Assembly: GCA_018238545.1 (NCBI GenBank)
Contig: JABCTC010000040.1
Location: 1-29,820 of the forward strand
Direction of reading: 5' to 3'
Length of the DNA stretch: 29,820 nt
Source: Candidatus Heimdallarchaeota archaeon
Lineage (GTDB): Archaea > Asgardarchaeota > Heimdallarchaeia > Heimdallarchaeales > Heimdallarchaeaceae
Both the position numbers and the translations under genes were made by a program. Shown here piece by piece: positions 21,770 through 25,368 of the stretch (positions within the stretch are counted from its first letter, which is position 1; each line of letters opens with the position of its first letter). The notes beneath the pieces are model-generated. The model was not told where the DNA came from and made no database searches. It saw only the letters and a list, made by a program, of their open reading frames with translations.

Positions 21770-22792
21770 TCATTCGAATAGTGTCTCGTCCTCTGCATAT
21801 CTATAAGCTATTATGAAAAGGATAAAGAAAATACATGCTGATAGTGCAACAACCAGTGTTATCATTCCATCCCATAATCTTGCCACGAAGTTTACTGCAA
21901 TGAATATGGGAACCATTAGTATTCCTCCTCCTCCACTATCTCTTGACATTTTCTTTCTCCATCGTATGAGAACTTCTAGTAAGCTTAAGCCTACAGCTAT
22001 TCCATTAATTATAAACATCGATAAATGAGATGCATCCCACCCTGCTGCAAATATGAAGATAAGCAAGAACCCTCCAAATAAAAGAGTCTTAATAACAAGT
22101 CCAATTCTGCTTTCAGTTGGTTTTGTATAGGATACTTGAGATGCTCCTTCTCGTAAGAGTAAGAAGAAGTTGGTTATTGCCATTGCACATGCTAAGCACA
22201 AAACTACCCCATAGAAGAACTCTGAATAAACTACCCAAAATTCCCAAATGGGTTGGATTACTGTAGAATATTCAACATAGAAAGCTATGGATACCATTAG
22301 GGGAATCGCAGCTAGTAAGAGACCTGGAATAACAATCAAAATAGCTGGAACATTCTTTTTAACTCCAAATGCATATAATAGTAATTTAGCAGCAAAAAAT
22401 GCTCCAAACACAGCAATAATAGGAGATCCGAAAGGTAGAATGAAGAAGAACAAACAAAATATGGCATTTACCATATAGAATAGTTTTGTGTCGATTCTAA
22501 CTTTTCCAAGAGCTCTCCACATTAGTTCATATGAATTTGCAATTCTATCTCTTTTAACAATAGAAGCTAAAGTGAAAGGCAGTGCAAAAATGAGCGGTGC
22601 AATAATTTTCAAGATGATAAAATCACCACTTCCTGAGGAGAAATAATTGCTATCTGACCAAAAAATGAAAGAATCTAAAGACATGTCTCTCATTGGGCCT
22701 AAAAACGCCCATAAGTAGAAGAAAGTTGGAAAAATAAAGATTTGAAGTAAGACAATGAGTCTATTGACCATCATTCCTCTCATATTTACCAT
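21770..22792 (-). CDS. Multi-pass membrane protein, unknown function
   Basis: About 9-10 hydrophobic segments; no motif recognised. Confidence 0.75.
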   Translation of the reverse strand: MVNMRGMMVNRLIVLLQIFIFPTFFYLWAFLGPMRDMSLDSFIFWSDSNYFSSGSGDFIILKIIAPLIFALPFTLASIVKRDRIANSYELMWRALGKVRIDTKLFYMVNAIFCLFFFILPFGSPIIAVFGAFFAAKLLLYAFGVKKNVPAILIVIPGLLLAAIPLMVSIAFYVEYSTVIQPIWEFWVVYSEFFYGVVLCLACAMAITNFFLLLREGASQVSYTKPTESRIGLVIKTLLFGGFLLIFIFAAGWDASHLSMFIINGIAVGLSLLEVLIRWRKKMSRDSGGGGILMVPIFIAVNFVARLWDGMITLVVALSACIFFILFIIAYRYAEDETLFE

Positions 22793-22847
22793 TTATTAAC
22801 ACCTTGGAAAAAAATAGTAATGGAAATAAAAAAACATTTCCTTTTAG

Positions 22848-23003
22848 ATTCCCAAACGGATCCCAAGCTCGGGTAGCCAATCGGGTTGATTTTTATTCAC
22901 CTTCTAACTTGACGAAGAGCCACAGAGGCATCGCTGCCTCTTTGTTGTGGACCCTTTCCGCCATAGTCTCAGGTGTAGGGTTCCCCTTTTTGACTAAGGG
23001 GTT
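22848..23003 (-). ncRNA. Candidate structured RNA (GNRA-capped helix, possible pseudoknot)
   Basis: GC-rich island with consecutive helices CCCCTT/AAGGGG, ACCCT/AGGGT, CCAC..AGAGGCA-GCGA-TGCCTCT-GTGG, CTTC/GAAG and CCCGA/TTGGG. GNRA loop and G.U pairs favour the minus strand. Confidence 0.55.
22986..22998. repeat. 13-bp direct repeat copy 1 (CTTTTTGACTAAG)
   Basis: Identical to 24017-24029. Confidence 0.85.
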
Positions 23004-23867
23004 CTAAGATTTTGTGGGTTCTTTAATCCCCATTACTTTTTTCCATATTCCGGGGATCAGAAAGACAATGCATGCTATTGTGCTAATTACCGGTGCCATG
23101 ATAAACATTGAGAAGGCCTTCTCTTCTAATTGGAAGGCTAGGATCATGGAATAGATTGCCAAAGGAAAACCACCTACCATACTCACGATTGCCCCTGACA
23201 GACCCATAATTCTCACCCATTCTTTCTTTTTGGCAAGGAAGAGTCCAATTGTGGTAATTCCGAATAAAATGGAAGCAATAAATCCTAAGCGTTGGGTAAG
23301 AATAAACACTCCGGCAACGCCATAATCGGGAGAATATTGGACCATCCTAGTCGTCGAAGCAATTCCATTAATAAAATTCAGGATGAAAGCCATGCCGGTG
23401 AGCATTCCAAATAGCATTTTTATCCAGGATTCATTTCTCATAGACCTTAGAAGAACGAAATACATCACAAGGTTTGGGAGAAAAATCAGAAACCAGACTG
23501 GTAATACTGCCCCACCTTCCATTGTTGGAATATTGGGCCAGAAGCTAGATTTTATTGAAAAAACTACTCCAATTACAGCAGCTGTATAGCCCCATTTCTT
23601 CTTTTGCAAAAATCCAATACCAGCTAATATCCATAATATTCCTCCTAGAATACCAATATCTGCAAATAAAGGGAAGAAAATTGGTGCTGTAGTTACACAA
23701 GGGTTATCTGCTTCTGCAGCCAAGATAGCTTCGAAGAAGAGGAGTGGAAGCAAATAGTGGAGAACTATTCCCAATGTACCCATGATGAGTGAAATTATTC
23801 CCATCATCATAGTTATTCCTGTTTTACTGTCTTCGGTCATTTTTATTTCTGTATTATTTTCAGTCAT
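23004..23867 (-). CDS. Multi-pass (about 8 TM) membrane protein with internal duplication
   Basis: Two similar halves (IGFLQKKKW / IGLFLAKKKEW). ATG 23867 preferred over GTG 23888. Confidence 0.8.
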   Translation of the reverse strand: MTENNTEIKMTEDSKTGITMMMGIISLIMGTLGIVLHYLLPLLFFEAILAAEADNPCVTTAPIFFPLFADIGILGGILWILAGIGFLQKKKWGYTAAVIGVVFSIKSSFWPNIPTMEGGAVLPVWFLIFLPNLVMYFVLLRSMRNESWIKMLFGMLTGMAFILNFINGIASTTRMVQYSPDYGVAGVFILTQRLGFIASILFGITTIGLFLAKKKEWVRIMGLSGAIVSMVGGFPLAIYSMILAFQLEEKAFSMFIMAPVISTIACIVFLIPGIWKKVMGIKEPTKS

Positions 23868-24016
23868 TTTTTTACCTTCTATAATCACTAAATTTCTAAA
23901 TTATACCTGTTTGAAAAGAACAGATGCTTAAGAAGTGTTAAATTTCTGTGTCTTTAAAAATCTTGCTCAAGAAAATTATAGATCAAATTAATTGGGAACT
24001 GGGGTAGAAGATCACT

Positions 24017-24029
24017 CTTTTTGACTAAG
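24017..24029. repeat. 13-bp direct repeat copy 2 (CTTTTTGACTAAG)
   Basis: Identical to 22986-22998; lies inside the GGGAACT(23994-24000)/AGTTCCC(24028-24034) inverted repeat, overlapping its right arm by 2 bp. Confidence 0.85.
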
Positions 24030-24102
24030 TTCCCCTACAAATTTGTGGGCGTCACTGAACTAAACTTTATTAAATCTTATTTATTAATATTCAATGAGGT
24101 TT

Positions 24103-25368
24103 ATGACAGGAAATCCGGCTTCTCTGGAAGACATATTAAAAAAATATGGTCTCCAAATTCACGACTTAGAATACATCTTAAACTTCATGCAAAAAGAGAG
24201 TATTTCTCCTCAATTAGCAATGCGCAGAATTAAACTATTTGAGAAATTACAAGAAAAAATGTCTAAAACTCAATCTGATGACAAAGTAAAAGAACTTACA
24301 TCAGAACTTGATCACTTGTCAAAACTGGTAGAAGAGCTTCAAACTGAAAAAACAGAATTAGATAAAGAAATTGAGGATACAAGATTAGAACAGGATCTTT
24401 TCAACGCTGAAAGAGAAGAATTGAAGATACAAATGCATGCTCTGATGGGTTCTATCGAAACTATTGAATCAGAAGCTGTAGAAGAAGAAGGAAAACTAGA
24501 CGAGGAAAATAAGAGCCTAAAAAAGAAAATTAGTGTAATGACTGCCGGATGTCAAACTGTAAAAGATAGGATTCTTGAGATTGCGTCAGAGAATTCTTCA
24601 CTTCACACATTAGCTCAAGGTCTGGAAAAGAGTCTAGACATTATAATAGAAGGAAATCAAATTCCAAATGAGTTAGGTATTTCAGTTCCAAAAGAAATGA
24701 TTGCTAAATCTCCCATTAAAAGAAGTGAACCTAAAACTGCATCAACTCCAAGCTCAGTTTCTGTAACTGAAACAATATCACCTGATCAAGTGAATTTTGC
24801 TGCAAAATCTCCTGTCTCTGAATCAATGCCTTCATCTCCGTCTGCTGCATCAACTCCAGCAACAACTGCTCCTGTTTCAGAACCAATTTCTCAATCTTCT
24901 ACCGAACCCAAAGAAAGTTCTAGTTCTGTGTTAAGAAAACCTGTTATAAAAGAAAAGTTATTTGCGGAACCTGAAGATATTAAAAAACCTGTATCAACTC
25001 CTTCAAAAGAATCTAAGCCGGCTCCTCAACCAGAACCAAAGCCAGAATCTGAACCTAAATCCAGACCAATTGAGGAAGACAAACCCAAGAAGATTTCAGT
25101 AAGTTCCAAACCTGTACCAGAAGGAAACCAAGTACCTGCTAAAATAGAAAAAATATTACGTCTTTTCATTTCTTATGCAGAACAAGCAGATACGGATGAG
25201 AACTGGAAAGCAAGAATTTCAGCAATCTGTGATATGGATGAAGCTTATATTGAGCTAGGTGGTTTGGCTATGTCTCAGATATACTCTTATCAAACTCAAA
25301 CTCTAAAGAAGAGGAAAGAATTCCAAAGATTGCTTAATTCATGGATTGAAAACGGGATACCTCGATAA
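24103..25368 (+). CDS. Coiled-coil + Pro/Ser/Glu/Lys-rich disordered linker + helical C-terminal domain protein
   Basis: Heptad-rich residues about 45-180, low-complexity about 200-345. GAGGT precedes ATG 24103. Confidence 0.8.
   Translation: MTGNPASLEDILKKYGLQIHDLEYILNFMQKESISPQLAMRRIKLFEKLQEKMSKTQSDDKVKELTSELDHLSKLVEELQTEKTELDKEIEDTRLEQDLFNAEREELKIQMHALMGSIETIESEAVEEEGKLDEENKSLKKKISVMTAGCQTVKDRILEIASENSSLHTLAQGLEKSLDIIIEGNQIPNELGISVPKEMIAKSPIKRSEPKTASTPSSVSVTETISPDQVNFAAKSPVSESMPSSPSAASTPATTAPVSEPISQSSTEPKESSSSVLRKPVIKEKLFAEPEDIKKPVSTPSKESKPAPQPEPKPESEPKSRPIEEDKPKKISVSSKPVPEGNQVPAKIEKILRLFISYAEQADTDENWKARISAICDMDEAYIELGGLAMSQIYSYQTQTLKKRKEFQRLLNSWIENGIPR

Follow-up and report, generated by a model that had tools for sequence, protein, structure and literature searches.

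Described systems with which a single gene enclosed by direct repeats can be compared include solo long terminal repeats (solo LTRs) and similar pop-out deletions, integron gene cassettes, insertion sequences (IS) of the IS200/IS605 and IS110/IS1111 types, and single-gene islets acquired by illegitimate recombination. Integron cassettes and integrase-less clusters of attC sites (CALINs) have been reported in Asgard archaea, in which cassette arrays without integrases are reported to be enriched (PMC9668308). Here we analyzed a locus of this general kind on contig JABCTC010000040.1 of an Asgard archaeal assembly (genome G000; 3.63 Mb, 92% complete). The window is the whole stretch of 29,820 nt taken from this contig, and its minus strand is referred to as the gene strand. 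The locus holds one gene coding for a membrane protein with eight transmembrane helices (8-TM), a structured trailer downstream of it (A) and a second, decayed copy of the trailer upstream of it (A'). Comparison with related genomes indicates that this is probably an old, repeat-flanked single-gene insertion that can be removed by homologous recombination and has no dedicated recombinase. The parts of the insert are the following.

22848..24049, minus strand: the whole inserted segment, 1202 bp, defined by alignment with the empty site and missing from the spacer of about 100 bp in 12 congeners
23004..23867, minus strand: 8-TM membrane protein gene, 287 aa from a conserved ATG at 23867, the sole open reading frame (ORF) product of the insert
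22848..23018, minus strand: trailer A, the downstream copy, 171 nt, containing the last 5 codons and the stop codon of the ORF and the hairpins H1, H2 (GNRA loop) and H3
22970..23018, minus strand: hairpin element H1 of A; in G000 the 5' arm carries mutations and the 3' arm still reads CCCTAC (TGTAGGG on the plus strand)
23868..24000, minus strand: segment B, the insert's own upstream region, with a conserved AAGATTTTTAAA block and a conserved 5' hairpin in the alignment of six filled loci
24001..24049, minus strand: A', the decayed upstream copy, reduced to its H1 part in G000 and ending exactly at the insertion boundary

The locus resembles a solo-LTR or pop-out system in that long direct repeats flank the unit, apparently near-identical at insertion and decaying since, and in that a natural allele, found in genome G016, keeps one repeat at the same junctions with the interior lost. 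Unlike an LTR element, it has no reverse transcriptase, integrase or other element function and holds one membrane-protein gene inside, its repeat overlaps the stop codon of that gene, and a single insertion is known. The likeness to integron cassettes and CALINs lies in the order of parts, an ORF followed by a structured repeat with a second copy before the ORF, and in the presence of the unit in some genomes and its absence from another. On the other hand, there are no RYYYAAC/GTTRRRY cores, no bulged long hairpin, no attI and no IntI, and the locus forms no array, since each of the eight filled loci has a single gene between two conserved core genes. It also differs from integron cassettes in what appears to be a promoter region of its own and in a repeat of ~170 nt unique to this locus.

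With IS200/IS605 and IS110/IS1111 elements the insert shares hairpins near its ends, the lack of terminal inverted repeats, the tetranucleotide GACG at the left flank and the right terminus, and an excision that could be precise. It differs from them in the absence of a Y1 or DEDD transposase from the assembly, in being single-copy and in having ends that share a whole trailer of 130-170 nt. No bridge-RNA or circle-junction promoter arrangement of the IS110 type was evident at the locus, which was inspected without a test aimed at such an arrangement. Finally, as in a single-gene islet formed by illegitimate recombination, the insert is flanked by a divergent pair of intact promoters within a conserved gene neighbourhood, its gene family is otherwise absent from the genus and present in related families, and selection on the cargo appears purifying and relaxed; in contrast, the long terminal direct repeat and the structured trailer are not predicted by simple capture.

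Insertion boundaries and alleles in related genomes

The genes on either side of the insert, coding for a 340-aa membrane protein and a 424-aa coiled-coil protein, form a conserved divergent pair and are adjacent to each other in the 12 empty-site congeners. Since 96-104 bp separate the flanking genes in these 12 members of the genus, compared to 1301 bp in G000, the insertion corresponds to 22848-24049 and not to 22986-24029, the interval bounded by the two copies of a 13-mer described below. Alignment of the G000 flanks with the empty spacer of G010 and G002, in which CCTTTTAG is followed directly by CGTCACTGAAC, placed both junctions to the base. From the left boundary it is 138 bp inward to the left 13-mer (122-138 nt to the left repeat copy), and the extended right repeat stops exactly at the right boundary. 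A preliminary description of the sequence had proposed a single-gene cassette between direct repeats; the 8-TM gene does lie on a discrete repeat-bounded insert, the true boundaries of which are 22848 and 24049 rather than the 13-mers.

Three alleles with identical junctions were found at this one site: empty (12 genomes), full (8 loci) and a solo copy of A (G016). The full allele occurs between the same two genes in G000, in G021 and in the metagenomic contigs L069, L070, L071, L072, L090 and L091, and the 8-TM proteins of the seven carriers other than G000 are 68-87% identical to that of G000. The presence of the same insertion at the same site in seven other assemblies, at this level of protein identity, indicates that it is old and inherited. 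Among 23 congeners the 8-TM gene was found in one (G021), and the family is known from related families.

In G016 a single full-length 171-nt A (L094:1477-1647), detected by BLAST and with the covariance model, lies between CCTTTTAG on one side and CGTCACTGAAC on the other, and no 8-TM gene was detected in this assembly, which is 81% complete. The preliminary description had foreseen a deletion between the repeats, and G016 is without exactly that unit and retains a single copy of the repeat at identical junctions. The solo A is what recombination between A' and A would be expected to leave, and it could instead be a precursor state. Its GNRA loop and its 3' hairpin H3 are degraded. An H1-type stem is kept in the solo copy by paired changes, GGAGG/CCTCT replacing TAGGGG/CCCCTA.

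A tree of the distal 10 kb grouped the filled genomes G000 and G021 in a clade with support of 100/100 and placed the empty G010 and the solo G016 at its unresolved base, with the empty G002 as outgroup.

The surroundings of the insert are as follows.

21770-22792, minus strand: 340-aa membrane protein gene, the left neighbour
22793..22847, no strand assigned: native spacer bordering the 340-aa gene, with 91-98% identity to that of G000 in the other filled loci, containing a GGAAAT-N8-ATTTCC palindrome and a T7 run
24050..24093, no strand assigned: native spacer bordering the 424-aa gene, starting with CGTCAC, so that on the gene strand the upstream junction follows GACG
24094-25368, plus strand: 424-aa coiled-coil protein gene, the right neighbour

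Read on the gene strand, the upstream flank ends with GACG, as does the insert of G021 and of L070, the other lineages having variants at the end of the insert; the GACG at the two junctions may represent either a target duplication of 3-4 bp or microhomology at the junction. When terminal inverted repeats were sought on A and on the whole insert, just ~5/9 positions matched, and inconsistently. The T7 run of the native spacer, at about 22830, could terminate the 8-TM transcript. The palindrome GGAAAT-AAAAAAAC-ATTTCC (22822-22841) is kept in close relatives and recognisable genus-wide; the insertion site lies 6 bp away and leaves it undisturbed. Placed between divergent core genes, this palindrome is a candidate shared operator or terminator.

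Structure, decay and distribution of the repeats

The short motifs from which the locus was originally recognised were all found again at the positions reported for them. The 13-mer CTTTTTGACTAAG occurs at 22986-22998 and 24017-24029, TGTAGGG at 22974-22980 and CCCTACA at 24033-24039, and the 8-mer GTTCCCCT at 22980-22987 and 24029-24036. In terms of the trailer copies these motifs read as follows.

22986..22998, plus strand: left 13-mer, the H1 loop block of A, reading CTTAGTCAAAAAG on the gene strand; the best conserved H1 block across orthologues
24017..24029, plus strand: right 13-mer, the H1 loop of A'
22974..22980, plus strand: left arm of the supposed outer inverted repeat, the 3' arm of H1 in A (CCCTACA on the gene strand)
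24033..24039, plus strand: right arm of the supposed outer inverted repeat, the 5' arm of H1 in A' (TGTAGGG on the gene strand)

An exact scan of the 3.63-Mb assembly revealed these two copies of the 13-mer only. Exact direct-repeat pairs of at least 13 nt with a spacing of 50-1500 bp numbered 6 independent pairs in the window and 858 genome-wide, against ~2 in each Markov-simulated window, and an outer 7-nt inverted repeat was present at 11 of the 545 13-14-nt pairs of the genome (2%). Judged by statistics alone, the 13-mer pair with its outer inverted repeat is not above chance. In G000 the repeat extends beyond the 13-mer, to 33 nt at 76% identity (25/33).

The orthologous loci revealed the full extent of the repeat. 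In G021, A' and A match over ~50 nt and each copy contains H1, with arms GTAGGGG and CCCCTAC and a loop of ~20 nt. The general form of H1 is GTAGGGGAAC ... GA(Y)CCCCTAC, with a stem of 6-7 bp and a loop of 18-21 nt. In G000, A has no intact 5' arm of H1 and A' has a damaged 3' arm, so that one intact arm is left on each side; the survival of one H1 arm in each decayed copy is what gave the appearance of an outer inverted repeat. The length of A' is ~150 nt in L069 and L070 and ~50 nt in G000, ~105 nt having been lost in most lineages. In L069 and L070 the two copies are 83% identical over ~130 nt, and orthologous A copies are 78-82% identical between lineages. This agreement of the within-genome identity of A' and A with the between-lineage identity of A indicates that the copies were near-identical when the insert arrived.

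Two models built on A also recognised the upstream copy of G000. A profile of the orthologous A copies, from which the G000 A' was left out, matched 24003-24048 with E = 5e-7 and had no other match genome-wide, and the covariance model of A gave E = 1e-6 for the G000 A' and E = 5e-45 for the G000 A. Taken at the level of sequence, the 13-mer pair of G000 is a case of true homology, the remnant of a longer direct repeat of ~50-170 nt.

Folding of A in G000 gave z = -3.8 on the gene strand, compared to -0.4 on the antisense strand, against shuffled sequence. Four of five orthologues of A also folded better than shuffled (z = -4.3, -2.8, -2.6 and -1.6), with the antisense strand weaker in most. 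Compensatory changes were seen in H1, in H2 with its GNRA loop and in H3; in the alignment of A, 79.5% of the cells were paired, compared to 31-49% when the partners were slid, and 5 pairs were changed on both sides. Covariation in A was not significant against shuffles with the 6 sequences available. A search of the locus in Rfam gave no match up to E = 1 except a spurious miRNA, and A has no Rfam family. Comparison between lineages gave 70-75% identity for A', B and A, 86% for the ORF and 92-93% for the native spacer, with a proportion of synonymous differences (pS) of 0.20-0.36, which puts the drift of the non-coding parts of the insert at about the neutral rate.

Searches for further copies were negative. 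An exact scan, blastn-short and nhmmer detected no other copy of A or of the 13-mer in G000, and neither BLAST over 40 relatives nor a search of 82 genomes of the class with the covariance model detected an A outside this locus. A marginal covariance-model match in a sister genus (L117, G040:C12:167726-167794; 23 bits, E = 0.009) is probably noise. Degenerate patterns of the H2 core and H1 returned the G021 contig only from the genome collection, and nothing (0) from the metagenome and viral contigs. No alternative cargo between the same ends was found in G000, in the 82 class genomes or in the pattern scans of genomes, metagenomes and viruses. The nearest homologues of the 8-TM protein outside the clade, at 55-60% identity, lie beside UbiA, AA_kinase or HTH_10 genes; there was no A-like sequence at these loci and a donor locus was not found there.

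Neither a Y1 transposase (PF01797) nor an IS110 DEDD transposase (PF01548) was matched in the 92%-complete assembly; for PF01548, control genomes were matched. The tyrosine recombinases of the assembly amount to just two Phage_integrase matches, on the other contigs C3 and C13, and no recombinase was seen beside the locus or inside the insert, nor an integrase or attI adjoining it. A tRNA or a known RNA as target of the insertion was considered and rejected, with 0 tRNAs predicted by ARAGORN in the window and no credible Rfam match.

These results modify what the preliminary description had made of the repeats. It had likened the 13-mers to an attL/attR pair; the 13-mer is no att core but the loop of H1, and the empty sites of G010 and G002 hold neither the 13-mer nor A. 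What were regarded as outer inverted repeats at the ends of an element are the two arms of H1, one surviving in each decayed copy. The suggested IS110/IS1111-like ends do not agree with 13-mers that are not at the boundaries, with ends confined to a single locus and with the lack of a DEDD transposase, and the idea of a cargo cassette mobilised in trans is left unsupported by one old locus with no other cargo or copies and with neutral drift of its non-coding parts. The alternative offered at the time, one transcript with ends pairing across the ORF, fails on the orientation of the copies, which are direct repeats, and on the position of A' beyond the likely promoter. The statement that no recombinase is in view was borne out, as the insert encodes only the 8-TM protein and none was seen next to the locus. 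Of the searches it had proposed, that for 13-mer copies and other cargo in the genome and its relatives returned a single locus with one cargo, and that for IS110 and IS200 transposases returned none in the assembly, where two tyrosine recombinases sit on other contigs.

The 8-TM gene and its upstream region

The 8-TM protein had no match in Pfam or NCBIfam, and its family was found in Promethearchaeota records only, of the Lokiarchaeota type. Those homologues that bear names are labelled Promethearchaeota, Lokiarchaeota or Hermodarchaeota. The ratio of nonsynonymous to synonymous substitution (dN/dS) of the gene is 0.25-0.6, and on this measure selection is purifying and relaxed.

A structure model of the protein had a predicted local distance difference test (pLDDT) score of 88 and no fold match in the PDB. 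One near-identical fold (template modelling scores 0.85/0.94) was found in an uncharacterised ESM Atlas cluster labelled Chloroflexota. Each half of the model resembles 4-helix membrane proteins, e.g. DUF8058, and the similarity of the two halves in the model suggests an internal duplication.

Shortened, still open 8-TM genes were observed in three of the eight carriers (L070:2592-3386, L072:2408-3160 and L004:1492-2241). The in-frame losses amount to 23 codons in L070 and ~37 codons in L072, and in G021 a 107-bp deletion is seen and the first 38 codons of the gene are gone. The shortened genes, together with dN/dS values up to 0.6, suggest that the cargo is dispensable in some lineages.

In segment B, the conserved AAGATTTTTAAA block resembles the TFB-recognition element (BRE) and TATA box of a promoter, and we infer from this resemblance that it serves as one. 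Upstream of the 8-TM start codon, and downstream of the TATA-like block, the minus strand carries a small hairpin with a U run (23906-23926; gene-strand sequence CTGTT-CTTTTCA-AACAG). All six aligned loci retain at least the CTGT/ACAG stem of this hairpin, and the surrounding part of B is only ~72% conserved. This hairpin may be a 5'-leader or attenuator-like element.

Origin of the insert and alternative explanations

The comparisons show that a segment of 1.2-1.4 kb entered the ~100-bp spacer once, long ago, in the ancestor of a small group of species within this Promethearchaeota genus of the Lokiarchaeota type. At its arrival the segment had the layout A'-B-ORF-A, with long, near-identical direct terminal repeats and with A overlapping the stop codon. 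The first insertion may have come about by illegitimate recombination of the microhomology type, with capture of a donor fragment in which the duplication was already present. The non-coding parts have since drifted at about the neutral rate and the A' of G000 has shrunk to ~50 nt, the recognisable remnant of the repeat in this genome being the 13-mer in the H1 loop, the second 8-mer and one stem arm per copy. Crossing-over between A' and A by ordinary homologous recombination would remove B and the ORF and leave one A, the state seen in G016. In G000 the unit would now be a fixed single-copy accessory gene without a dedicated recombinase, and there is no evidence of present-day mobility of the insert.

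Several observations weigh against this history. No observed donor explains the origin of the terminal duplication, and the solo A of G016 could be a precursor and not a deletion product, the sequence relationships being the same either way. Trees of the flanking genes group the empty G010 with the filled G021 and L071, and the approximately unbiased (AU) test gave p = 0.03 against a single filled clade, a marginal result with a range of 0.03-0.23 for the flanking genes. Unless recombination or lineage sorting is admitted, the empty G010 would need a base-precise loss, which is beyond simple repeat recombination. In addition, the GACG at the junctions could be a target-site duplication, and hairpins kept with compensatory changes, even in the solo copy, could point to a role in recombination rather than to an RNA. 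With regard to G010, the discordance between the local and the distal trees suggests recombination between close species around the locus, and its placement could reflect such local recombination or lineage sorting and not a precise loss.

Among the other explanations, a stepwise origin is unlikely, though the least unlikely of them. It holds that the 171-nt A was inserted first, as a solo copy like that of G016, and that a DNA circle bearing A, B and the ORF later integrated into it by Campbell-type homologous recombination. Such a course would account for terminal repeats that were near-identical at the start and for an insert that starts and ends exactly with A, and it is compatible with the position of G016 at the unresolved base, outside the clade of G000 and G021. 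It needs, however, two independent arrivals of an otherwise unseen sequence at one site, A being found nowhere else, and the degraded H3 and GNRA loop of the G016 copy are as would be expected of a leftover; the sequence relationships, identical under both courses, cannot separate it from deletion. A site-specific cassette, in which A (or H1) would be a structured attC- or att-like site and B-ORF-A would be moved by a recombinase encoded elsewhere, is improbable. That exactly the repeat-bounded unit is present or absent (G016), that a structured repeat with stems that co-vary while the sequence drifts lies at the 3' end of the ORF, that GACG stands at both junctions and that two tyrosine recombinases are encoded elsewhere in the genome would all agree with it, as would the enrichment of integrase-less cassette arrays in Asgard archaea (PMC9668308). 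Against it stand the single locus, with a single cargo and a single event, found across 82 class genomes and three public collections, and a hairpin H1 without RYYYAAC/GTTRRRY cores, whose arms GGGGAAC...GAYCCCC form a short stem with a ~20-nt loop and not a long bulged hairpin. Moreover, the unit seems to carry its own promoter region, A' was left to decay, with ~105 nt lost in most lineages, and no integrase or attI is adjacent.

The related notion that A is the recombination end of an undescribed Asgard single-gene cassette system, a ~170-nt structured repeat targeting GACG, with the enzyme elsewhere and with excision either precise (G010) or between the repeats (G016), is judged equally improbable. 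Still more doubtful is a history in which A would be a miniature element of the IS200/IS605 type, associated with palindromes and inserting 3' of GACG without duplication, two copies of which moved the gene as a composite, and in which precise excision produced the empty G010. The hairpins near both ends of A fit this (H1 begins 11 nt in from the 5' end, and 3-7 nt separate H3 from the 3' end), as do the GACG read in the upstream flank and again at the 3' terminus of A and the position of the empty G010 among filled alleles in the flanking-gene tree. Miniature IS200/IS605-type elements are normally multicopy, whereas A is confined to a single locus in every genome searched; no Y1 transposase was found in the 92%-complete assembly, the end hairpins H1 and H3 are unrelated to each other, and the duplicated part is the whole 130-170 nt and not just the end hairpins. 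Furthermore, the distal 10 kb puts G010 outside the 100/100 clade of G000 and G021, and recombination or lineage sorting would explain the local tree. The probability that the repeats are a coincidence without shared origin is negligible. Exact 13-mers ~1 kb apart are common (6 in the window where ~2 are expected), and the outer 7-nt inverted repeat accompanies 2% of comparable pairs, so that chance was the default after the statistics; it was rejected on the long orthologous repeats, in which both copies match over 50-130 nt, and on the independent profile and covariance-model matches that fall on the A' of G000. The old insertion flanked by direct repeats, entered once and removable by homologous recombination, is thus the explanation that we favour.

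The locus carries a caution for the reading of single genomes: what looks like a short direct repeat framed by an 'outer inverted repeat' can be all that erosion has left of a much longer hairpin element present in duplicate, and where an insertion truly begins and ends is visible only by comparison with relatives. If the trailer were a recombination site and not an RNA element, which the data do not favour, it would point to a new gene-cassette route in the archaeal relatives of eukaryotes. As it stands, the empty, solo-repeat and full alleles of this one site form a clean natural series within a genus of Asgard archaea, showing the entry of an accessory membrane-protein gene between core promoters and how its flanking repeats can remove the gene again.

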